Positions 10,074 to 58,839 of a stretch of DNA of 64,000 bases are shown here, one piece after another. The notes beneath the pieces are model-generated. The model saw nothing but the letters and a program-made list of their open reading frames with translations, was not told the DNA's origin and searched no databases. Numbering within the stretch: position 1 is the first letter of the stretch; the number at the start of each line of letters is the position of its first letter. Source of the stretch: Escherichia phage vB_Eco_F31; sequence record OP870147.1. The stretch is one strand, 5' to 3'. A program made the translations under genes and the position numbers.

Positions 10074-10110
10074 ATTATTTTCCTCGGTTATTTTATTATC
10101 CAACGAGAGA

Positions 10111-10139
10111 ATTATACTCATCTCTCAAGAGTTTGTATA
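10111..10139 (-). promoter_or_regulatory. early promoter / stem-loop cassette
   Basis: TATACA-N17-TATAAT; inverted repeat GAGAGA/TCTCTC brackets the -10; near-copy at 40648. Confidence 0.6.
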
Positions 10140-10379
10140 CTATTTTTTAAGCATGAAAAGTAAGTAATTTGTATCACGTGGAGTAATATCAACACCCATA
10201 TCAAAGATGCCTTTATAGATTGGGTATTTGTTTTCGGTTGTATCGAAGCTGAAACTATTTCCATCACAACTAACAGTAATAGCATCTGTTAAAATGTCAT
10301 ACTCAATCCTAACAATTGAATCCCCAATTTTAACGTCGAGGTGTTTTTTGAATTTGATAAAATCTAATTCTTGGGCCAT
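10140..10379 (-). CDS. hypothetical protein
   Basis: 79-aa ORF downstream of promoter cassette. Confidence 0.5.
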   Translation of the reverse strand: MAQELDFIKFKKHLDVKIGDSIVRIEYDILTDAITVSCDGNSFSFDTTENKYPIYKGIFDMGVDITPRDTNYLLFMLKK

Positions 10380-14896: not shown

Positions 14897-15366
14897 TTTA
14901 AACTCTTTCTAAGCTGCTTTTTGAATGAAGCTATTAATTGTGTTTTAGTATCAGATTCATTATATTCAAATCCTCTTTGAAGCATCTCGGACATCATTTC
15001 CTCTTTACCTAGTCTTGAGAACTCTTTAGTTTTGTCTGGAACAAAATTAGGATGGATATTATTATCAGAATAATCTTGTTTCAAATAAGCAAGAAGAGAT
15101 TCAAGCCATTCGAGGTAATCAACGTTTTGACCTTTAAGACCAGAACGGTTGAACTTATGCTTCATTTGGCCTTCTGCTGCGTTGCACAGATTACAGAGTA
15201 ACCCACGAACTTTACCGGCTTTTGGCCCGCTTAATTCGTGGTCGTGGTCAAGATGGTTACCTTGAACATCAGGGTCTAATTCACGGTGGCAAATTGGACA
15301 CTTACCATTCTGTGCATCATAAAATTTTTGTTTTTCTTCTTTATATTTTGCGCCTGATAATAACAT
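14893..15366 (-). CDS. 49: recombination endonuclease VII gp49
   Basis: 157 aa; MLLSGAKYKEEKQKFYDAQNGKCPICHREL...HLDHDHELSG close to T4 endo VII from memory. Confidence 0.93.
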   Translation of the reverse strand: MLLSGAKYKEEKQKFYDAQNGKCPICHRELDPDVQGNHLDHDHELSGPKAGKVRGLLCNLCNAAEGQMKHKFNRSGLKGQNVDYLEWLESLLAYLKQDYSDNNIHPNFVPDKTKEFSRLGKEEMMSEMLQRGFEYNESDTKTQLIASFKKQLRKSLK

Positions 15367-17465: not shown

Positions 17466-17770
17466 TATAATGTTCTCTCAAATTTGTGGAAGCATTTACG
17501 GCATTTCAATTTCAAGTTATCAGTTGTCCAGTTAACCAGTTGGACTTGGATAGTTCCACATTCCGGGCATGGATGTTTTGCTGCCGATTTGGCAGCATTT
17601 TCACGTCGTTCAACCATTTTCATTATTTCGTTCCATGCCGGAGGAACAAACTCTTCTTCACCGTGGATTTTATCTCGCTGAACAAATTCAATCTTTGAAC
17701 TATCGTCAATAAACTTAACCAAGCCATGATTAGTGCTCATATCAATATCCTCTAAAAGACGTAGTTTCAT
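17465..17770 (-). CDS. hypothetical zinc-ribbon protein
   Basis: CPECG...CRKC pair of CxxC motifs. Confidence 0.5.
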   Translation of the reverse strand: MKLRLLEDIDMSTNHGLVKFIDDSSKIEFVQRDKIHGEEEFVPPAWNEIMKMVERRENAAKSAAKHPCPECGTIQVQLVNWTTDNLKLKCRKCFHKFERTL

Positions 17771-18720
17771 TATAACACCTCAATGGCATTTCGTAAACCA
17801 TCCGCTTTCGCATTCAGAGCTTTTAACGATTTAGTTTGTTCTGCAATCTGGGCTTCGACTTCTTTCAGACGAGATTTGAGATATTCGCGTTCTTCTCTTA
17901 AGTTATCAACCTTTTCTGCTTTAGGCTCTTTAATAGGCTTAGGCTTATACTCGTTAGGGTTCTTCAACTTAATTTGAATGCGAGAACTGTATAACATTGA
18001 ACCATTATCTTCGGTTTCATCATACATTTCTACCACGTCCATGATTCTTAACATCATGCGAAGTTTATAAGACAGCGAACGAATGGTTTTATTGTGCTTC
18101 TTAATTTCTTCAGCTTTCATGGTGCCGAGATTACGTGAGTAATAATAAGGAACCTGAATATCAATTGATAATGATGCGGTACCATTACCGGTTGGTTTGA
18201 ACACTGCAGTAACCCAATCTTTAGCATGAACTGTATTTGTACGATCATCGCCGCCTGTGAATAATTTACGAGAATGTTTAAAAAGCATATTCACTTGGTT
18301 ATTGAATTCACAAGCAAATTTATCAGCAAATTTAGTTTCAGGAATGGTAGTTAACCAATCAGCCAAATGAGTCTTTTTAACATCATTAACAATAGTGAAT
18401 TCAACCAAATCGGTTTTAGATGTCACAGTTTTAATAAAGCTCGGCTTCATAAAGTTTTTAATGTTATCGCGAGCTACAGTAGAAGATAATAAACGAGAAC
18501 GTTTGAACCATTGAAGCAGTGTCCCTAATGAATGAGAATATGCATTTTGAGTATCTTTACAGATATGATTTTCTTGGCCTATGTATGTACCAAAATCTCG
18601 AAGAATACCACTTACTACATCTCGGTGTGGAACATCAAATCCTAGTGCACCAGAAGCACGTTGGGCATGAACGTTAGCGATAAGACCTGCAAAGTATTCA
18701 ATGTAATGTGAACGTGTCAT
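17770..18720 (-). CDS. hypothetical protein with C-terminal coiled coil
   Basis: 316 aa; heptad-like C-terminus; own promoter cassette upstream. Confidence 0.6.
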   Translation of the reverse strand: MTRSHYIEYFAGLIANVHAQRASGALGFDVPHRDVVSGILRDFGTYIGQENHICKDTQNAYSHSLGTLLQWFKRSRLLSSTVARDNIKNFMKPSFIKTVTSKTDLVEFTIVNDVKKTHLADWLTTIPETKFADKFACEFNNQVNMLFKHSRKLFTGGDDRTNTVHAKDWVTAVFKPTGNGTASLSIDIQVPYYYSRNLGTMKAEEIKKHNKTIRSLSYKLRMMLRIMDVVEMYDETEDNGSMLYSSRIQIKLKNPNEYKPKPIKEPKAEKVDNLREEREYLKSRLKEVEAQIAEQTKSLKALNAKADGLRNAIEVL

Positions 18721-18748
18721 AATATTTTCCTCTCGTTAAGATAAATTC

Positions 18749-18777
18749 ATTATACTCCAACCATCCTTGGTTGTAAA
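18749..18777 (-). promoter_or_regulatory. early promoter / stem-loop cassette
   Basis: TTTACA-N17-TATAAT with hairpin CAACCA-TCCT-TGGTTG in the spacer; 29-nt core identical to 19769 copy. Confidence 0.65.
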
Positions 18778-18782
18778 CTATT

Positions 18783-19742
18783 TTATGATTTTAATGCATT
18801 CATTGCGTTAAAAAGTTTAGAATACTGCAACTGGAGATTCGTTACAACACTTTGAGCATCACGAAGCTTAGCTTGTGCTTTGTCAAGTTCAACAGACAGT
18901 TGGTCCATAGTGGCCTTGATTTGATTGTAATGGTAATCTTCGGCCGGAAGAAGGTCATTAGAAACATTTAGTTTTACTGCAGACAGTTTGCACACATTTG
19001 GCAAACCTTTAAACATTGATTTAGCCGAAGTAGAATAAGCACTTAGGACTTCGGCTTGTTCAATTGGGGTCCCAGTAAGCGATGCTTCAAACAATGCATT
19101 TTCCTTTTTAAGATTTTGATAGTATTCAGAGTCTTTGTGCCACCATGGCGCAGGAACCTTTTTACCAATAGATACACGAGCCTGGATAGCGATATTGCCC
19201 TTATTCTTGATAGGGTCGATAATATTAAGCTCACGAGAATAAATTGCTTTAATCTGGTGAATATTATCACCTAACACTTCCAACGCTTGGTGGAATACAC
19301 GAGCAACGTTATCATTCTTAGGTTTATACGTGAGAGTGAACTCGTTCTCACTGATAACCATGATTTCCAACTTATCGTAAGTATATTTCAAATGTTTCAT
19401 GTTAATTGCTTGAGGACGAATACGAGAAGCAATGGCCATCAGATTGTTAAGGTTATTCCGGAACTGCTTAGCGAAATATTGTCCTTCACCGCCAATACAA
19501 AAATTACGAAGTTTCTGTTTGGCCAATAAACGGCTGAACTCACCATTTTTAATGAACTCTTTAACGGGTGTGTTAGTAACGCATTCAAATTTAGTAAACT
19601 TACGAGAATTAATCCCATAATACGAACAGATTTCCTCAATCTCTTCAGGAGTCTTTACAGGCATACGGATAGGATTAGGTCCTGGAGTATATGCGTTCGA
19701 GGTAAATTCTTTGATAAGTTCTTTACGTGTAATAAAAGCCAT
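18783..19742 (-). CDS. hypothetical protein with C-terminal coiled coil
   Basis: 319 aa; own promoter cassette upstream. Confidence 0.6.
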   Translation of the reverse strand: MAFITRKELIKEFTSNAYTPGPNPIRMPVKTPEEIEEICSYYGINSRKFTKFECVTNTPVKEFIKNGEFSRLLAKQKLRNFCIGGEGQYFAKQFRNNLNNLMAIASRIRPQAINMKHLKYTYDKLEIMVISENEFTLTYKPKNDNVARVFHQALEVLGDNIHQIKAIYSRELNIIDPIKNKGNIAIQARVSIGKKVPAPWWHKDSEYYQNLKKENALFEASLTGTPIEQAEVLSAYSTSAKSMFKGLPNVCKLSAVKLNVSNDLLPAEDYHYNQIKATMDQLSVELDKAQAKLRDAQSVVTNLQLQYSKLFNAMNALKS

Positions 19743-19768
19743 TTTATATTCCTCATGTTGAAAAATTT

Positions 19769-19797
19769 ATTATACTCCAACCATCCTTGGTTGTACA
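19769..19797 (-). promoter_or_regulatory. early promoter / stem-loop cassette
   Basis: TGTACA-N17-TATAAT; same core ttattatactccaaccatccttggttgta. Confidence 0.65.
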
Positions 19798-20793
19798 TCA
19801 TTCCTTAAGAAGTTTTACTACCTGAATAAGATTAGCTCGTTCTGTTTTATTTTTACCGTTTAAGCCTGCTAATCGTGAGATTTCATCGTCAGTCTGTTGA
19901 ATAGTTACATTAAGTTCGTTAATCAAAGCTTCAAAGTATTTGATTTGCTCAGCATGTTTTGATTCAAATTTCTGAACCGGAATAACGTCTTGGTTTAGTT
20001 CATCAATAAGGTCTTTAAGAGCATCTTCTTGGTTGATATCATATTCAACTTCTTTTATTTCTTCAATGAGCTCGTCTTTATATCTAACGTCTTTTAGTCC
20101 TGGTGCTGGTCCTGAAATCTCTTCTTTAAGAGTACAAACATATCCAATACGGTATCCAATGCCGTCTCGCTTGATATCAACTTCGTCGATAAATCCACAA
20201 TGTTTAAGCCCGGAGCCGATTATGTCAAAATATCCTTGACGTCGTCCTTCAAACGTTACACGAACTACTAAGACAGTTTTACCTGCAACCTTTTGAAGCT
20301 CACATTTATAAAAGTCAGTTGAACCTGAATAACGTGGATGAGTTTTAAAGTTCATCTGACGATCTAGGCCCATTTGTAAGCGTGCTGTTACGGCCATAAA
20401 ACGTGTTTGGTTCTCGTTAAGATGAGCAACAATCCATTTCAAAGGCATTTTACACTGTTCACGACCGAACAAATCAGTACGTCCTAGATTACGCAGGATG
20501 TTGTTAGAGTTAATCATCGACAGAACGTTAAGTTTATTCAGCGCGCTGAAGATTCCATCAGCCATTGATTTTCCATAACCTTTACACGCTTTAATAAGTG
20601 CTCGCGGCAGATTAGTATAGATTTCAGACGGCATATGAAAATCAAATTTACTAGTCAGTAATTGATGAACTTGGATAGCAATTTGCTCATAATTAAGTGC
20701 TCTGCGATCGTTATGGTCTTTAAACCACACTTTAATCTGTGAAGCACATAAACCGTTAATTTCATGTTTTACCGCATCAGATGTAATGCTCAT
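19798..20793 (-). CDS. hypothetical protein with C-terminal coiled coil
   Basis: 331 aa. Confidence 0.6.
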   Translation of the reverse strand: MSITSDAVKHEINGLCASQIKVWFKDHNDRRALNYEQIAIQVHQLLTSKFDFHMPSEIYTNLPRALIKACKGYGKSMADGIFSALNKLNVLSMINSNNILRNLGRTDLFGREQCKMPLKWIVAHLNENQTRFMAVTARLQMGLDRQMNFKTHPRYSGSTDFYKCELQKVAGKTVLVVRVTFEGRRQGYFDIIGSGLKHCGFIDEVDIKRDGIGYRIGYVCTLKEEISGPAPGLKDVRYKDELIEEIKEVEYDINQEDALKDLIDELNQDVIPVQKFESKHAEQIKYFEALINELNVTIQQTDDEISRLAGLNGKNKTERANLIQVVKLLKE

Positions 20794-20828
20794 AACTATT
20801 TCCTCAGATTGAATTGGAACTCAAAACC

Positions 20829-20854
20829 ATTATAACCCGTCCTTGGGTAAAGCG
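20829..20854 (-). promoter_or_regulatory. candidate middle promoter
   Basis: CATAAACGCTTTA + 13 nt + TATAAT, same 13-mer as at 4435..4447. Confidence 0.4.
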
Positions 20855-20855
20855 T

Positions 20856-21383
20856 TTATGCGTGAACCGTCTTTAAACGTTCTTCAAATTTCCGAAGAGT
20901 ACTAATACGTTCTGCTTTCTGTTTTGTATAGTTTGCAATACGTTCTGAAGTGAGAGCGTATCGTTCGTTTACTGTTTCTTTCATGAAGTCAGGGATTTCA
21001 CGAGAAGCTTTAATTTCATCAAACTTATCGAGTACTGCCTGGTCTTCAGCAATTAAATTTTCGTACATCTCGATATCTTTCTTGATGAAGTCGATATCTT
21101 CCTGGGTTACTTTGGATAAACGAGATGCTTTATCCTTTTTGTACTGCTCGTTAGTTTCACGAGACCAGAATAATGTACGTTTTTTGTTAGTGTTTTTGTA
21201 GACTTCCACAATTCCAACTGAATCGATGATAACAATCCAATTCCAGCGAGATTTGAAAATCTGACCTCCGTCCACGGTAATCTCGTTACCATAAGCAACG
21301 TCATTAAAGAACTTGCTTTGTGCTTCAGATTTAAATTTACCGTCGTTATAATTTACCAGGTTGAAAATATCTTTAGCGTTCAT
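20856..21383 (-). CDS. hypothetical protein
   Basis: 175-aa ORF. Confidence 0.55.
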   Translation of the reverse strand: MNAKDIFNLVNYNDGKFKSEAQSKFFNDVAYGNEITVDGGQIFKSRWNWIVIIDSVGIVEVYKNTNKKRTLFWSRETNEQYKKDKASRLSKVTQEDIDFIKKDIEMYENLIAEDQAVLDKFDEIKASREIPDFMKETVNERYALTSERIANYTKQKAERISTLRKFEERLKTVHA

Positions 21384-25580: not shown

Positions 25581-25609
25581 ACTATAACATAGTCCTACCA
25601 AGATGTAAA
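25581..25609 (-). promoter_or_regulatory. early promoter / stem-loop cassette
   Basis: TTTACA-N17-TATAGT; TAGGACT/AGTCCTA brackets the -10. Confidence 0.6.
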
Positions 25610-25843
25610 CTACCGATTGTGTTTTAAATGTTGATAAAGTTCTTCAACTTGTTTTGGGTCCAAAACAATTAAGTCATTTTCTTGACGAAGATAAATCCAT
25701 CCCTTATCCCCAGGGCCATTTTTACAAAACATCACCACCGTATCATCATCTTCAGCGCTTTCAGGTAAAAGTTCAAGTACACCGTCTTCAGATTTTCCAG
25801 TATAATCGTAAAGCATAATATCCTCACATAATCTCGTTAACAT
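25610..25843 (-). CDS. hypothetical protein
   Basis: 77-aa acidic ORF. Confidence 0.5.
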   Translation of the reverse strand: MLTRLCEDIMLYDYTGKSEDGVLELLPESAEDDDTVVMFCKNGPGDKGWIYLRQENDLIVLDPKQVEELYQHLKHNR

Positions 25844-26058: not shown

Positions 26059-26070
26059 CTGATAGATGCC

Positions 26071-26099
26071 AAAAAAAGCCCCAACCATAAGGAAGGGGC
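26071..26099 (-). terminator. rho-independent terminator (GCCCC...GGGGC cassette) after rI
   Basis: Minus strand GCCCCTTCC-TTAT-GGTTGGGGC followed by T7; 8 nt after stop at 26107. Confidence 0.7.
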
Positions 26100-37833: not shown

Positions 37834-37862
37834 ACTATAACATAGCCCTATCTTGTTGTAAA
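37834..37862 (-). promoter_or_regulatory. early promoter / stem-loop cassette
   Basis: TTTACA-N17-TATAGT; GATAGGACT/AGCCCTATC brackets the -10. Confidence 0.6.
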
Positions 37863-37867
37863 CTGTT

Positions 37868-40012: not shown

Positions 40013-40606
40013 TTATTTCAAAGAGTTAATATATTCTTGTACATCAGCAGAAGTGGTTTCGACACCAGCTGGAGTGCCATTGAACGTTTCAACACGAGTT
40101 AGAGTGTCTTCGATATCAACCTTAGTCAGTGCAGCGATTTCAATTACATCATCGGCCGTAGAGATACCAAGGGCATTAGCTGCTCGAGTTTCACGAATGT
40201 ATTCGAGTTTGATTGCCAGATTCTGCCGAGCATCATCAAGTTCAACCACCTTACGAGCAATTTCAATTCGCATAGCGGCATACCCGTCAGCTTTTGTATT
40301 AAGTTGTTCGGCAGTTCGACGATACAGAAGACCAAGCTTAGCATGCATAGTAACATCTTGTCCTTCGGCCAGGAGCTTACGAATTTCACGTTCCTTAGAA
40401 GCGGCTTGCTTGTTCTTTTCATTAACAAGTTCGCGAATACGTTTTTCTTCATTAATAGATTTAACAGAAGCCGTTTTTAGTTCTTTGATTTGGGTAATCA
40501 ACTTATCTGCAGCTGCGTTATACTGTTCTTCGACAGTCAGATTTTTAGCCATAGCAGTACCCAGTTTAGTGCGGATGAATTCAACAAGTTTCTTCAGTGT
40601 GTTCAT
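40013..40606 (-). CDS. hypothetical coiled-coil protein
   Basis: Start placed at ATG 40606 ([10 protein letters not shown]...). Confidence 0.55.
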
Positions 40607-40647
40607 ATTATTACCTTTCAATTGGTGGTTTATTATCCAACGAGAGC

Positions 40648-40676
40648 ATTATACTCTGCTCTCAAGAGTTTGTAAA
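40648..40676 (-). promoter_or_regulatory. early promoter / stem-loop cassette
   Basis: TTTACA-N17-TATAAT; repeat GAGAGC/GCTCTC brackets the -10; near-copy of 10111 cassette with compensatory changes. Confidence 0.6.
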
Positions 40677-40904
40677 TTATTTTTTAATCAAATTGACATA
40701 AAACTTGGCGTCTTCAGGGTGCATGCCTTCGCAGTATTCTTCAACCATGAACTTCTTAACAGCTTCATAAGGACCACTCAGATTAAGCTCAGTTGTCCAG
40801 AACTTGGAATCTTGGACTGAATCGATACGAACTTCAGGGTGGCGGTTGCGAATAACTTCTTCGGTGTATTCATAATCAACGACATCAATACTAACTTTAG
40901 CCAT
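40677..40904 (-). CDS. hypothetical protein
   Basis: 75-aa ORF. Confidence 0.5.
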   Translation of the reverse strand: MAKVSIDVVDYEYTEEVIRNRHPEVRIDSVQDSKFWTTELNLSGPYEAVKKFMVEEYCEGMHPEDAKFYVNLIKK

Positions 40905-40931
40905 TTTGTTTTCCTCTTGATTTGATGTGAT

Positions 40932-40960
40932 TACTATAACATAAACTTACTTAGATGTAA
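40932..40960 (-). promoter_or_regulatory. early promoter
   Basis: TTTACA-N17-TATAGT upstream of ATG 40904. Confidence 0.55.
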
Positions 40961-41145
40961 ATTATTTCAACGTCACCTTTAGCTGCTTTATAACCTTCAG
41001 CCCAAGATACAACAGAGTTTTTATCTGAGGATTCAAATTCAGGCATTGGACTTTCACCAATATTCACACAGTATGTTTCTTCATTTTCATCGAACCAAAT
41101 AATTAAAGTAGTCATTTTGTTTACTCCTCTGTTGTTGATAAACCC

Positions 41146-41174
41146 ATAGTATCACCATCCTTGGTGCTTGTACA
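41146..41174 (-). promoter_or_regulatory. early promoter / stem-loop cassette
   Basis: TGTACA-N17-TACTAT with hairpin CACCA-TCCT-TGGTG in spacer (diverged copy of 18749 type). Confidence 0.5.
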
Positions 41175-41183
41175 TCATTATTT

Positions 41184-41489
41184 TTAATTTTTCCAACTTA
41201 ACAACTTGTAGTGTCCTTCATTCATACGTGGTTTATCCCAAGAAATACTAATATATGATTCACCGTCAATAGAAGTCGCCGGGTTTTTCTCTACCGTAAG
41301 ACCTTCACTTTCCAGCCATTCAATAGTATTTGAGCATAAATCAGAAGAACACCTCATCGGGAACCGGCAAGATTTTTCACCTTTAGCCGCAGTGTTATAC
41401 ATCTTTTCTAAAATACGCTTTTGCACGTTTTTAAAAATAGTTTCAGCAGATTCTTCAGATTTTTTATTCAGTTCAGTGTAAAGACTCAT
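41184..41489 (-). CDS. hypothetical protein
   Basis: 101-aa ORF. Confidence 0.5.
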   Translation of the reverse strand: MSLYTELNKKSEESAETIFKNVQKRILEKMYNTAAKGEKSCRFPMRCSSDLCSNTIEWLESEGLTVEKNPATSIDGESYISISWDKPRMNEGHYKLLSWKN

Positions 41490-41517
41490 AATATTCTCCT
41501 CTGTGGTTGATAAGTCT

Positions 41518-41545
41518 ATAGTATCATGTCCTTAGAAGAAGTAAA
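41518..41545 (-). promoter_or_regulatory. early promoter
   Basis: TTTACT-N16-TACTAT upstream of ATG 41489. Confidence 0.5.
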
Positions 41546-41579
41546 CATCTTTATGAAATATTTTTATGCCCTAGATGCC

Positions 41580-41606
41580 AAAAAGCCCCAACCATAAGGA
41601 AGGGGC
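41580..41606 (-). terminator. rho-independent terminator (GCCCC...GGGGC cassette)
   Basis: Same hairpin as 26071 copy followed by T5; 6 nt after stop at 41613. Confidence 0.7.
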
Positions 41607-41612
41607 ATTCTA

Positions 41613-42077
41613 TTATTTAATTTGTTTAGCAGACCAGATACGGTCTTTAATAAGTTTTTGGATATCTTCAACATACTCAAGGCTATGAGCGTGAGGATTA
41701 TCTTTGAAGCTATGTGCTCGTGCCAGTTTCTGTCCTTCTGTTTTGATTACTAAAAGCTCTTTAAGAATTGCTTCATACTTAGAAATAATTCCTTTGGCGA
41801 TATTTTTTTCTTGAGCTGCTTTAGGGTCCGCTTTTGGCGCAGGTGCTTTACCTGTAGCTTTCTGGAACAATTCACCTGATGCAGCTAGGCTTTTAAAAAC
41901 TCGGCTAACAGTATTAGCATTAGTAAAACCTTCGGCTTTAAAATCTCTAATAAAACGGAAACGTTCTTCATCAGAGGCGTCTTTGTAAGAATATTTACCT
42001 GCTTGAATTGCTGCAATCGCAGCGGCTTTTACATCTGAACTAGATTGTTCAGTCAAAAATTCAGCGTATGATTTCAT
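41613..42077 (-). CDS. internal protein (capsid-targeted; ipI-like position)
   Basis: CTS MKSYAEFLTE; terminator downstream. Confidence 0.7.
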   Translation of the reverse strand: MKSYAEFLTEQSSSDVKAAAIAAIQAGKYSYKDASDEERFRFIRDFKAEGFTNANTVSRVFKSLAASGELFQKATGKAPAPKADPKAAQEKNIAKGIISKYEAILKELLVIKTEGQKLARAHSFKDNPHAHSLEYVEDIQKLIKDRIWSAKQIK

Positions 42078-42122
42078 GTTGCTTTTCCTAAATTAATTAA
42101 CTTATCTATTTATTATTATGCC

Positions 42123-42149
42123 AAAAAGCCCCAACCTTTCGGAAGGGGC
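42123..42149 (-). terminator. rho-independent terminator (GCCCC...GGGGC cassette, GAAA loop)
   Basis: Minus strand GCCCCTTCC-GAAA-GGTTGGGGC followed by T5; closes the tRNA/RNA locus. Confidence 0.7.
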
Positions 42150-44451: not shown

Positions 44452-44480
44452 ACTATAACATAGTCCTATCTGCATGTAAA
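44452..44480 (-). promoter_or_regulatory. early promoter / stem-loop cassette
   Basis: TTTACA-N17-TATAGT; perfect 9-bp repeat GATAGGACT/AGTCCTATC brackets the -10. Confidence 0.65.
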
Positions 44481-44484
44481 CTAC

Positions 44485-56400: not shown

Positions 56401-56550
56401 TCGGAACGACGTAAACTGATGAGCCCATTATTTGATGCGTCCGGAACAACATTCTCTAGATTTAGAGATTTGGTTGAACAACGGTTAATCGATAATGTAG
56501 GAAATCCAAGAGACCCCGTGAATCCACCGCAGGTTAAATTAGATGAATGA
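53452..56550 (+). CDS. 7: baseplate wedge initiator gp7
   Basis: 1032 aa, same length as T4 gp7. Confidence 0.85.
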   Translation: MTVKAPAVTSLRISKLSANQVQIRWDDVGANFYYFVEIAETKTADGEIIPPASYRWINLGYTPNSNWFENSLDPLTSYIIRVSTAAEGFERSDWVYTEIFESFQTNAYTFQHMIEMQLANTFIREKFTNNNMAYVDFNNDTIMAALMNESFQFSPAYADISSIKNFIIGENEYHEIQGSIQQVCHDINRVYLMESEGILYLFERYQPVVKVSNDKGQTWKSVKLFNDRVGYPVSRTVYYQTDYTTYVLGYDKLFYGRKSTDVRWSADDVRFSSQDITFAKIGDQLNLGYDVEIFGNYASLPANVSRIAEAIVCNDDYVYVAARDKVRFIKTSNAPIDSDPLSPTYSERLFEQETFNITGNPKAVCYKMDSVGGKIFALIIGEVVNLNDDPRTTPIVDSADKGVYVLDHDAGTFKRVFGNTEEERRRIEPGYTSMSTDGVELSISSSNFKFLESDIVDDPKTQIKYGLIGAVKYEYPREWLADKHYHMMAFISTEDSQWESFTPQPMEYYAEPFFSYSRKSGTRCWINNSDKAVVIYSDLLYTKVIENHPLSSSDREVHEYWKDGDCTIVMPNVDFTGFKKYASGMIFYKSSGEIISYYDFSYRVRDNVSIIWKPTNIFLTASLQNQEKDTTWTPVEENGITDPDLRPLLTTMMPESYLLDNTNFEAFCEAYIQYLSDGYGTHYNNLLNLIKNQYPREEHAWEYLWSEIYKRNIYLNAEKRDLVSRFFESRSYDFYSTKGTEASYKFLFKVLYNEDVEIEIESSSGTEYDIIIESDSLTEDLVGQTIYTATGRCNVTYIERSYSKGKLQWTVTIHNLLGRLIQGQEVKAERLPGFEGEIVRGIKGKELSQNNIDYINRGRAYYVMKIKSKLPSSRWKSDVLRFVHPVGFGFIAITLLTMFINTGLTLKHVETIINKYKNYKWDSGLPTKYADRVAKLDPQGNVEFDPITGKAIYEIGPMAGQDYPLPEDYNAENNNSIFQGQLPSERRKLMSPLFDASGTTFSRFRDLVEQRLIDNVGNPRDPVNPPQVKLDE

Positions 56551-57577
56551 TTCAAGTGTTATCTATCGTGCAATAGTTACATCAAAATTTAGAACAGAAA
56601 AAATGCTGAATTTTTATAATTCAGTTGGGGATGGAGATGATAAGAACTCCATTTATATTACGTTCGGACGTTCAGAGCCTTGGGCGTCAAATGAAAATGA
56701 GGTGGGCTTCGCCCCACCTTATCCTACAGATTCTGTTCTTGGTGTTACTGATATGTGGACCCATATGATGGGTACCGTTAAAGTTTTACCTTCAATGTTA
56801 GATTCTGTTATTCCTAGGCGTGATTGGGGAGATGTGCGATATCCGGACCCTTACACGTTTAGAATTAACGATATAGTCGCGTGTAATACTGCTCCGTACA
56901 ACGCGACAGAAGTTGGAGCTGGTTGGTTAATTTACCGTTGTTTAGACGTCCCTGACGTAGGGCTCTGTTCAATAGAATCTTTAGATAATAAAGATGAATG
57001 TCTTAAATTGGGTGGTAAATGGACTCCGTCTGTTCGTTCTATGTCTCCTCCTGAAGGCAGAGGCGATGCTAATGGGGTTATCGAAACCGGTGATGGATAT
57101 ATTTGGGAATATCTTTATGAGATTCCTGCCGATGTGTCAATTAACCGTTGCACTAATGAATACCTTGTAGTTCCATGGCCGGAAGAAATTAAAGAAGACC
57201 CAACCCGTTGGGGATATGAAAATAACTTAACTTGGCAACAAGATGACTATGGCTTGATTTACCGTGTTAAAGCCAATACGATGCGGTTTAAAGCATATTT
57301 TGATTCGGTTTATTTCCCTGAGGCAGCTTTGCCTGGTAACAAGGGTTTTAGACAGATATCAATTATCGCAAACCCGTTAGAAGCTAAGAAAAATCCAAAT
57401 GACCCTAATGTTAAAGCAGAAAAGGATTATTACGACCCTAGAGACTTGCAACGTCATTCTGGTGAAATGATTTATATGGAAAACCGACCACCTGTTATTA
57501 TGGCAATGGACCAAACAGAAGAAATTAACATTTTGTTTATGTTTTCCCAACCCGTTGGGGATATGAAAATAACTTAA
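56543..57577 (+). CDS. 8: baseplate wedge protein gp8 with aberrant 10-residue C-terminal tail
   Basis: 344 aa; frame runs from duplication copy 1 into copy 2 out of frame, adding SQPVGDMKIT after ...INILFMF. Confidence 0.85.
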   Translation: MNDSSVIYRAIVTSKFRTEKMLNFYNSVGDGDDKNSIYITFGRSEPWASNENEVGFAPPYPTDSVLGVTDMWTHMMGTVKVLPSMLDSVIPRRDWGDVRYPDPYTFRINDIVACNTAPYNATEVGAGWLIYRCLDVPDVGLCSIESLDNKDECLKLGGKWTPSVRSMSPPEGRGDANGVIETGDGYIWEYLYEIPADVSINRCTNEYLVVPWPEEIKEDPTRWGYENNLTWQQDDYGLIYRVKANTMRFKAYFDSVYFPEAALPGNKGFRQISIIANPLEAKKNPNDPNVKAEKDYYDPRDLQRHSGEMIYMENRPPVIMAMDQTEEINILFMFSQPVGDMKIT

Positions 57578-57892
57578 CTTGGCAACAAGATGACTATGGC
57601 TTGATTTACCGTGTTAAAGCCAATACGATGCGGTTTAAAGCATATTTTGATTCGGTTTATTTCCCTGAGGCAGCTTTGCCTGGTAACAAGGGTTTTAGAC
57701 AGATATCAATTATCGCAAACCCGTTAGAAGCTAAGAAAAATCCAAATGACCCTAATGTTAAAGCAGAAAAGGATTATTACGACCCTAGAGACTTGCAACG
57801 TCATTCTGGTGAAATGATTTATATGGAAAACCGACCACCTGTTATTATGGCAATGGACCAAACAGAAGAAATTAACATTTTGTTTATGTTTT
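57199..57892 (+). repeat. perfect tandem direct duplication, 2 x 347 bp
   Basis: 57199..57545 and 57546..57892 are identical on inspection; flanking bases differ so boundaries are exact. Confidence 0.9.
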
Positions 57893-57966: not shown

Positions 57967-58839
57967 ATGGCATTTTTTAAGCAAACTCCTAAACAATTAA
58001 TCGATACCGGCGAAATTGGTAATGCCTCAACAGGTGATATCTTATTCGACGGTGGTAATAAAATAAATGACGATATCAACGCTATTTACAATGCATTTGG
58101 CGATCAACGTAAAATGGCCGTAGCAGATGGAACCGGACCTACAGGTCAAACTATTCATGCCACAGGATATTATCAAAAAGGAAAGGCGGTCGATTATCAA
58201 ACTCCTATTAAACCAGGCACCATGCATGATATTGATGCTTCTGATGGCGGTGTGATTGTTATTATTGACCGTCCTGAATTAGGTGACTCTGTAGAATTCA
58301 TAAACTCTAATGGGTCTATTTCTGTTAACAATCCTTTAAGTATCCAAGTAACCGATGGTTCGATTAAAGGTGTTCTTAATAATCTTGTTATTTCCACCCC
58401 TTATACCCATGTTGTTCTTCGTTGTGTTGAACTTAATGGACCAACTTCAGTATGGAATTATTCTACTGATAGCATGTTTGGGCAGAAAGAATCTCCTGTC
58501 GATGGGACTTGGAGTCTTACAGGAAACACAGTTTCTATTCCTCTGTTTTATCGCACGGATTATAACATGGCTAAATTGCTTGTTACATGCCAATCCGCTG
58601 ACGGTAGAAAAATAAAAACATGCGAAATAAATATTCTAATAGATACAATTAACTCAGAAGTTCTTTCTACCGAATTTGCAGTAATGCGAGTTGGTAATGT
58701 AGATGAAACCGACGAGATTGCTAATATTAGCTTTAGTATTATTAACAACTTTGCTACTATGACGATTACATCCGATATTATTGGATTACGTTCAGCAGTT
58801 AAAATTATCTCAACTCAGAAAATTGGGGTCGCTCAATAA
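57967..58839 (+). CDS. 9: baseplate wedge tail-fibre connector gp9
   Basis: 290 aa; late promoter TATAAATA at 57927. Confidence 0.85.
   Translation: MAFFKQTPKQLIDTGEIGNASTGDILFDGGNKINDDINAIYNAFGDQRKMAVADGTGPTGQTIHATGYYQKGKAVDYQTPIKPGTMHDIDASDGGVIVIIDRPELGDSVEFINSNGSISVNNPLSIQVTDGSIKGVLNNLVISTPYTHVVLRCVELNGPTSVWNYSTDSMFGQKESPVDGTWSLTGNTVSIPLFYRTDYNMAKLLVTCQSADGRKIKTCEINILIDTINSEVLSTEFAVMRVGNVDETDEIANISFSIINNFATMTITSDIIGLRSAVKIISTQKIGVAQ

Follow-up and report, generated by a model that had tools for sequence, protein, structure and literature searches.

In the 64,000 nucleotides (nt) of Escherichia phage vB_Eco_F31 analysed here (record OP870147.1; this whole stretch is called the window below), two direct copies of an intergenic promoter cassette, P1 and P2, enclose a gene for a protein of 319 amino acids (aa), which belongs to the NrdC.5 family. 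Very probably, P1 and P2 are cassettes of the promoter-early stem-loop (PeSL) type, by whose recombination the bracketed gene is dropped or re-inserted, and they owe their identity to copying or homogenisation of the cassette alone. Natural isolates directly show the outcome of such a crossover, a hybrid junction. The region shares 98-99% identity with genomes of Mosigvirus, the RB69-like T-even phages, and its gene order (nrdD, 49, pin and nrdC, followed by the accessory genes nrdC.x, every one of them on the minus strand) matches that of RB69 from nrdC to nrdC.10; the cassettes sit in the nrdC hyperplastic region of this genus.

A gene between two copies of one cassette

What becomes of the gene between the two copies in related phages? 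This comparison, which had been suggested together with the original prediction, turned out to be informative: the gene is either present or absent, and a hybrid cassette stands at the junction where it is absent. The layout of nrdC.3, the 319-aa gene and an nrdC.6-like gene is found in 131 phage records, and 21 records recognised with a junction probe have nrdC.3, a single cassette and the nrdC.6-like gene, the 319-aa gene being absent at the locus. About one in seven sequenced Mosigvirus records is thus without it there (a locus search seeded with NrdC.3 gave only five loci). Nine gene-absent loci and twelve gene-present ones, RB69 among the latter, were read in detail. All nine gene-absent junctions consist of the upstream flank of P2 (...cttcttaaggaatgaTGTACA), the shared core and the downstream flank of P1 (...tatcttaacgagagg-ATG of nrdC.3). 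Such a hybrid is the product to be expected from a crossover inside the 27-nt word common to both copies, and therefore the cassettes bound the insertion or deletion (indel). Recombination acting on the cassette, which had been proposed from the single sequence, is in this way borne out by relatives.

The gene-absent genomes are not one lineage. Three haplotypes of the P1 downstream flank (C-tttctatc, G-aatctatc and G-aatttatc) each occur in both gene-present and gene-absent genomes, neighbour-joining trees of either flank leave the gene-absent genomes scattered rather than monophyletic, and F2 and FL18 are, near the junction, closest to gene-present genomes. This distribution fits several independent events, or one deletion spread by the heavy recombination of T-even phages. 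As to direction, loss is more parsimonious, because T4, VR7 and Dhakavirus phage 005 all have nrdC.5. Replacement of alleles between the cassettes was also considered, and none was seen among the gene-present genomes, where the middle gene is 90-99.6% identical, a range similar to that of nrdC.3.

How exact is the repeat itself? An identical 29-nt cassette had been reported at 18746..18774 and 19766..19794. Searching with that 29-mer gives two matches in the window and none in 100 dinucleotide-preserving shuffles, so the repeat is real and far above chance; the positions, however, are one base higher (18747-18775 and 19767-19795), and the first match has one mismatch (TCATTATAC... versus TTATTATAC...), the second being exact. 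The copies are thus identical at 28 of 29 positions, and the longest word that they share exactly has 27 nt (TACAACCAAGGATGGTTGGAGTATAAT on the gene strand; 18749-18775 = 19769-19795). Looser similarity covers 43 nt at 88% (18740-18782 against 19760-19802), so that the copies, 1,020 bp apart, have 27 bp of perfect identity and about 36-43 bp of high similarity. Among the 231 pairs of promoter cassettes in the window this is only the fourth-longest exact match, three other pairs sharing longer words of 29-34 nt. Paralogy of the flanking genes at the nucleotide level had been named as the finding that would overturn the original prediction; the comparison was run, and among the genes behind or between the copies only the 43-nt cassette repeats, ending at the intergenic boundaries. 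BLASTP among the three proteins concerned (316, 319 and 331 aa) likewise shows no similarity (E 0.28 to 4).

The duplication had also been called recent, and this is wrong. All twelve gene-present genomes that were read have both copies, and the layout is that of the 131 records. The core is unchanged in nine of the twelve and has a single point change in one copy in each of the other three, over genomes whose flanking genes differ by up to 7-10%. As both copies are in all twelve and the core is nearly invariant, the duplication is old and maintained, and it appears to be genus-wide in Mosigvirus. It might be argued that selection alone keeps the two copies alike. The three related cassettes of T4 have the stems AGCCA, CCACA and ATACCA, however, and those of VR7 have CTTCCA and ATACCA; since stems differ within one genome, selection does not demand an exact sequence, and identity implies copying or conversion. 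A 27/27 match beside such diverged coding sequences is no passive relic of an old duplication, either. No cassette lies upstream of nrdC.5 in T4, VR7 or Dhakavirus phage 005, and therefore P2 looks like a copy added in the Mosigvirus lineage. Most probably, P1 and P2 became identical in the ancestor of Mosigvirus, where only the cassette was copied or homogenised, and not through a recent event in this phage.

That the control element was copied independently of coding sequences had been foreseen, and it agrees with the lack of similarity between the flanking genes and with a further occurrence of the same core beyond the window: at dexA-motB in related Mosigviruses it precedes an unrelated 164-aa gene downstream of dexA. 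This copy shares 46 identical nt with the RB69-type P1 (locus L007, 1327-1352, and locus L008), and that of phage F2 (L153, 1019-1620) has one change in the loop, AAGGAC. The next cassette there, with the stem CATCCA/TGGATG, precedes a motB-like gene; as annotated, the start of this gene seems to extend across the cassette. AV109 and JM17 lack the 164-aa gene at this locus; in AV109 a '-35 + hairpin' is fused to the next, intact cassette, a 'half-PeSL' that does not result from simple homologous crossover. It was a scan of IMG/VR for an exact 26-mer, returning only four stretches, that revealed the dexA-motB copy, and the looser pattern CAAGGATG-N2-10-TATAAT gave mostly unrelated contigs among the matches listed. 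Judged from these occurrences, the cassette is a dispersed repeat family that would travel without coding sequence.

Each copy is built as a promoter. Read on the minus strand, P1 is GTTTACA-accaaggatggttggag-TATAAT and P2 is ATGTACA-accaaggatggttggag-TATAAT. The TTTACA/TGTACA-N17-TATAAT arrangement of the original prediction is found as described (18777-18749 and 19797-19769, both on the minus strand), and so are the reading frames of 316 and 319 aa behind the copies. With a 17-nt spacer, P1 matches the sigma-70 hexamers at 11 of 12 positions and P2 at 10 of 12, and both fit TTTACW-N17-TAYWAT, the consensus of PeSL promoters in Yersinia phage PST and T4, save for one base in P2. The 25 nt upstream are 84% (P1) and 68% (P2) A+T, against 62.5% for the whole window, and the record of phage NBG1 has a 'promoter' annotated, by prediction, at the site orthologous to P1. 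By their match to the consensus, P1 and P2 are putative early sigma-70 promoters of the T4 type. A MotA-dependent (middle) promoter was ruled out for both, as neither has a TGCTT box at -30; a box of the form CGCTTTA exists only in P3, a related cassette further upstream.

The AGGA-loop hairpin, the proposed mechanism and its rivals

Both promoters contain the same 6-bp hairpin, CAACCA-AGGA-TGGTTG, which spans the last two bases of the -35 box and the spacer; it is the hairpin noticed before as CAACCA-TCCT-TGGTTG, the AGGA loop of the gene strand being TCCT on the plus strand. Matching intergenic positions of T4, T2, VR7 (Gaprivervirus) and phage 005 (Dhakavirus) have its core, CCAAGGAYGG, as well, with compensatory changes in the stem. 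In a set of 11 distinct sequences, 87.9% of the cells that should pair do so, against 64.5% after shuffling, and none of 500 shuffles reaches the observed value; when the register is slid as a control, pairing falls to 23-45%. Four of the six stem pairs have changes on both sides, and the fourth position runs through all four Watson-Crick pair types; the set has one G-U pair, in VR7. As the covariation shows, pairing of this hairpin is apparently under selection.

What, then, is the hairpin for? Members of the family always stand a few nt after the upstream stop codon, and the distance from loop to -10 box varies from 3 to 10 nt among them; because of this variation a fixed register of hairpin and -10 box, as contact with RNA polymerase would need, was rejected. 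Since the hairpin lies upstream of the start site of its own promoter, it takes an RNA form only in read-through transcripts. Our best guess, of moderate confidence, is that it may serve as an attenuating, protecting or processing structure at the 3'-end of the upstream cistron. Rfam covariance models have no match at E <= 1 in 18600-20950, and two tRNAs only in the whole window. In the copies upstream of nrdC.3 and nrdC.4 the hairpin is followed by GGAG-TATAAT. RegB cuts GGAG, and RNase E cleaves A+U-rich stretches that adjoin a hairpin. One may go further and imagine, in place of a generic attenuator, a dedicated cis-element that couples, through one motif, the expression and the flux of counter-defence genes such as nrdC.5, being a site for a processing enzyme in read-through early mRNA or for a recombination-promoting phage protein. 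The CCAAGGAYGG core is kept in at least four Tevenvirinae genera, always between stop codon and -10 box, and its stem covaries at positions 4-6 through all four types of base pair; still, we put this idea forward only as an improbable one.

The course of events that we propose is as follows. Right after infection, host sigma-70 RNA polymerase would read P1 and P2, so that transcription of each accessory gene of about 1 kb would, judged by the consensus, start separately, about 20 nt ahead of its ATG. Only read-through from upstream would transcribe the inverted repeat of the spacer, which would then fold into the 6-bp hairpin, 4-9 nt past the preceding stop, where it most likely would act at the 3'-end of the upstream cistron in the way suggested above. 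The recombination machinery of T-even phages would cross over between P1 and P2, removing the NrdC.5-family gene with one cassette and leaving a working hybrid cassette, and the reverse reaction would put the 319-aa gene back.

Several observations weigh against parts of this reading. Recombination between co-infecting T-even phages could move a single deletion onto several backgrounds, so that repeated independent events are not proven, and the direction, deletion or insertion, would be read only from the presence of nrdC.5 in T4, VR7 and phage 005. Promoter activity and start sites of P1 and P2 are predictions. The covariation set mixes orthologous and paralogous sites, some of them found by a filter that looks for hairpins. 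With 45 nt of context the hairpin reaches about -7 to -8 kcal/mol, which is weak; in a fold scan of the early-promoter cassettes the local z-scores of the P1 and P2 hairpins are -1.8 and -1.1, and RNAs with a 76-nt context fold no better than shuffles (z -1.3 and -0.55 for these two, and further +1.4 and -0.2). It has no U-run, and the terminator scan does not report it, so that for P1 and P2 the 'terminator' part of the PeSL idea appears unsupported.

Of the other explanations, the one that survives best is an ancient tandem duplication of promoter plus gene, in which NrdC.3/4 and NrdC.5 are old paralogues, hardly recognisable any longer as such in their coding sequences, and their promoters were kept alike by gene conversion. 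It concerns the origin only and is compatible with a role in recombination. The proteins lend it something: profile comparison by hhalign of NrdC.3/4 with NrdC.5 gives a probability of 92% (E 6e-7, 159 columns, 13% identity), T4 NrdC.4 finds NrdC.3 by BLASTP at E 1e-4, and NrdC.3, NrdC.4 and NrdC.5 are alike in size (about 310-340 aa) and all end in a similar amphipathic helix, so that they are probably remote paralogues. These profiles are shallow (4-5 sequences), however, and NrdC.6-like proteins are unrelated to either group in the same kind of comparison. As P2 looks secondarily acquired from its absence in T4, VR7 and phage 005, and the same core stands before the unrelated 164-aa gene at dexA-motB, we find a common origin of the cassettes with the genes doubtful.

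It is less probable still that the hairpin is an intrinsic terminator and that the cassette insulates each gene transcriptionally, the classical function of a PeSL. In RB49 a PeSL stem-loop cut expression of lacZ as strongly as rrnB T1 did (PMC2839356), and a hairpin of conserved pairing placed 4-9 nt past a stop codon would suit such a role. Here, however, the stem has only 6 bp with three G-C pairs and is followed by GAGUAUAAU and not by a U-run; absence from the terminator scan and an ordinary fold energy, as given above, speak against it too, and true G+C-rich terminators with U-runs do occur elsewhere in the window (26068, 41575 and 42118). Nor is there much to be said for an operator at the level of DNA, a palindrome that some protein of phage or host would bind to regulate these promoters, and that selection, not recombination, would have kept identical. 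The core is indeed invariant across four genera, and from its place in the promoter spacer a protein bound to it would keep RNA polymerase out. Yet stem positions 4-6 covary through all four Watson-Crick pair types, as is typical of a folded strand and not of a palindrome read by a protein, which makes an operator less likely; the varying distance to the -10 box leaves no fixed register with RNA polymerase, and the hybrid junctions show that recombination does occur. We regard an operator as very improbable. Finally, a simple recent segmental duplication of gene and promoter, suggested by neighbouring genes that are about equally long and have one and the same sequence upstream, as well as chance or an assembly artefact, can be dismissed: similarity ends at the intergenic boundaries, BLASTP is non-significant, no shuffle contains the repeat, and the arrangement is in 131 independent phage records including RB69.

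Recombination between PeSL-type cassettes, which we prefer, makes this locus a clear case, from nature, of the way in which T-even phages acquire and discard accessory genes one at a time. A regulatory repeat of 27 bp on either side of a gene would let homologous recombination remove or restore it with the expression of its neighbours undisturbed. As the T4 member of the NrdC.5 family overcomes the Dsr1 defence, the polymorphism may reflect turnover driven by host defences. For annotation, a word that recurs unchanged between the genes of a T-even genome is a sign of PeSL cassettes and of likely breakpoints.

Neighbouring genes and other cassettes in the window

Table 1. Positions of the cassettes, their parts, the adjoining genes and related elements (window coordinates unless a locus is named)
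Feature	Positions	Strand	Remarks
316-aa nrdC.3 homologue	17770..18720	-	56% identical to T4 NrdC.3; driven by P1 (predicted)
Cassette P1	18721..18782	-	entire intergenic region, stop of 319-aa gene to ATG of nrdC.3 homologue
P1 parts	-35 18778-18772; spacer 18771-18755; -10 18754-18749	-	-35 GTTTACA; 17-nt spacer; -10 TATAAT; Shine-Dalgarno GAGAGGAAAA
Exact 27-nt core, copy 1	18749..18775	-	crossover of deletion variants inside
Hairpin in P1	18758..18773	-	CAACCA-AGGA-TGGTTG; end of -35 and spacer; 9 nt after upstream TAA
319-aa gene between P1 and P2	18783..19742	-	Pfam DUF7235, NrdC.5 family
Cassette P2	19743..19800	-	intergenic 19743-19797 and TGA stop of nrdC.6-like gene 19798-19800
P2 parts	-35 19797-19792; -10 19774-19769	-	-35 TGTACA directly after TGA; 17-nt spacer; -10 TATAAT; Shine-Dalgarno GAGGAA
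Exact 27-nt core, copy 2	19769..19795	-	27-nt word match
Hairpin in P2	19778..19793	-	same hairpin, CAACCA-AGGA-TGGTTG; 4 nt after upstream TGA
331-aa nrdC.6-like gene	19798..20793	-	distant NrdC.6 homologue; upstream neighbour of P2
P3, before 331-aa gene	20829..20853	-	GCTTTA 20853-20848; hairpin ACCC-AAGGAC-GGGT 20848-20835; TATAAT 20834-20829
Diverged member	41146..41175	-	ATGTACA-N17-TACTAT; hairpin CACCA-AGGA-TGGTG 41153-41166; before 54-aa open reading frame (ORF) 40951-41115
Second cassette family	25581-25610, 37834-37863, 44452-44481; also 36270, 36539, 21411, 10411		
dexA-motB further locus	L152, 1019-1090		related Mosigvirus, outside window

The 319-aa protein matches DUF7235 at E 2e-122 and T4 NrdC.5 does so at E 5e-126; the two are 25% identical. 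In T4, nrdC.6 is annotated with 275 aa, and the conserved C-terminal peptide of its relatives, ...SKAKSEREKLIKIVDLLKS, is encoded after its stop in another frame (L005, 9997-10066). T4 nrdC.6 thus looks frameshifted near its 3'-end, and the true gap between nrdC.6 and nrdC.5 would be about 8 nt, with no promoter in it.

Two further members of the AGGA-loop family lie in the window. One is the diverged copy at 41146-41175, which had been noticed and is real; its T2 orthologue has the stem AACACC/GGTGTT. The other, P3, before the third gene of about 330 aa, is the fourth member of the family and had been overlooked. The -35-like hexamer of P3 is only about 12 nt from the -10 box, and CGCTTTA, 13 nt upstream of TATAAT, resembles a MotA box; P3 may therefore be either a promoter of the middle class or a cassette that has degraded. 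Its orthologue in T4 is the nrdC.8-nrdC.7 intergenic region, where the cassette is predicted to drive nrdC.7; in RB69-like phages nrdC.7 adjoins nrdC.

In total the window has 21 early-promoter cassettes, of which 11 fold with z < -1.5 (strong stem-loops, mean z -2.3). Some form another family, larger than that of P1 and P2, with exact words of 29-34 nt in common (TAGGACTATGTTATAGTAGTCCTATCAAAACAAA); its inverted repeats of 11-13 bp enclose the -10 box and fold with z of -4.4 to -5.9, which would make its members stronger PeSL examples than P1 and P2. Three copies (26068-26099, 41575-41606 and 42118-42149) exist of a hairpin that resembles a terminator, being rich in G+C and having a T-run (gene strand: GCCCCTTCCTTATGGTTGGGGCTTTTT); those at 26068 and 41575 stand directly upstream of GTTTACT early promoters, the classical PeSL layout of terminator plus promoter. 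Another cassette pair is a 62-nt direct repeat of 90% identity, 30.5 kb apart (10092-10153 and 40629-40690), of the form GTATACA / ATTTACA-N17-TATAAT with a CTCTTGAGAG palindrome in the spacer. Window 40600-41700 is a second hyperplastic stretch, in which the coverage of relatives breaks in or beside cassettes of promoters and terminators (window 41501 and 41552, for query positions 902 and 953); the block conserved there in T2- and T4-type phages is the 54-aa ORF with the 41146 cassette. A hairpin, TTCAAAG-AGG-ATTTGAA, followed directly by TATAAT, is also found inside the coding sequence of gene 49 (endonuclease VII; window 14965-14981); its conservation extends to T4 and further Tequatrovirus loci, and it may have to do with the pair of nested products that the T4 annotation gives for gene 49.

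A repeat of another kind is a perfect tandem duplication at 57199-57892 (347 bp x 2.0, 100% identity), at the 3'-end of a baseplate wedge gene (ORF 56543-57577) and before a tail-fibre connector gene (57967-58839). The region is single-copy in the best-matching related records listed (954 bp against 1,301 bp here). Because the repeat begins at the stop codon and its unit of 347 bp is not divisible by 3, the protein would be whole, about 10 residues longer, and a duplicated piece of the gene would follow. Either the duplication is real and recent, or it arose in the assembly.

Relation to known PeSL cassettes

P1 and P2 are a further example of the PeSL cassettes already described and no new kind of element, and they open no new class. 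PeSLs were defined by Arbiol et al. (2010) in the T4-like phages RB49 and phi1 as a series of stop codon, A+T-rich stretch, sigma-70-like promoter, stem-loop, Shine-Dalgarno sequence and ATG, the stem-loop lying most commonly between -35 and -10 or over -10, and in other subclasses overlapping either box, upstream or downstream; they are clustered in hyperplastic regions, where crossover between neighbours deletes the ORFs between them and forms mini-circles (PMC2839356). All features of this definition that a sequence can reveal appear to be present in P1 and P2. The -35 and -10 boxes of sigma-70 type lie about 17 nt apart in an intergenic region; a stem-loop is placed between them and overlaps the end of the -35 box, which gives the subclass; a stop codon and an A+T-rich stretch are found at the 5' end, and a Shine-Dalgarno sequence and start codon at the 3' end. 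The site is hyperplastic, among the non-essential ORFs of the nrdC.x cluster, and each cassette is one of many (21 in the window). And the cassettes bound indels with the crossover inside them, as in the 21 gene-absent records and the nine hybrid junctions.

The likeness to RB49 and phi1 thus extends from the intergenic composite, the 17-nt spacing and the hyperplastic clustering to direct copies that recombine around an ORF. The promoters there are near-perfect TTGACA-N17-TATAAT, whereas the -35 box here is TTTACA or TGTACA, and the stems of RB49 are strong, with a G-run and a C-run and with measured terminator activity, in contrast to the short AGGA-loop hairpin here, which is without terminator features.

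Closer by descent are the cassettes of T4 and Yersinia phage PST. By Comeau et al. (2014), PeSL and 'half-PeSL' of these phages are given the consensus TTTACW-N17-TAYWAT, PmSL is described in phage nt-1, and degraded PeSL copies are placed beside indels in PST at about 43-51 kb (PMC4122927). As nrdC.3 of PST lies at 45.8-46.6 kb, this region is the nrdC cluster. These phages share with our case the subfamily Tevenvirinae, the promoter consensus and the genome region, and P3 may resemble PmSL, the Mot-box version. The stems of T4 and PST are there AGNA-loop-TCNT and lie just upstream of the promoter, whereas the CCAAGGAYGG hairpin is inside the spacer; the text of that paper does not name a CCAAGGAYGG spacer hairpin, and a full-text search for the motif CCAAGGATGG gave nothing relevant. 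The Mosigvirus pair with its deletion variants is a separate instance from these.

Concerning the gene itself, the nearest parallel is a laboratory one. T4 recombines even between microhomologies of 6-10 bp, which gives rise to deletions and amplifications, and T4 nrdC.5 was reported to restore infection of hosts that carry Dsr1 (Srikant et al., 2022; PMC9391042). In both systems DNA containing nrdC.5, or a gene of the same Pfam family, is lost through short repeats. The deletions in T4 arose in the laboratory, are 0.7-6 kb long and use those microhomologies; here a 27-bp regulatory repeat gives precise loss of a single gene in natural isolates. The 319-aa protein, 25% identical to T4 NrdC.5, would be linked to counter-defence through its family membership. 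What the Mosigvirus cassettes add to the known systems is an exact natural deletion series, this link to the NrdC.5 family, and an AGGA-loop hairpin that covaries.

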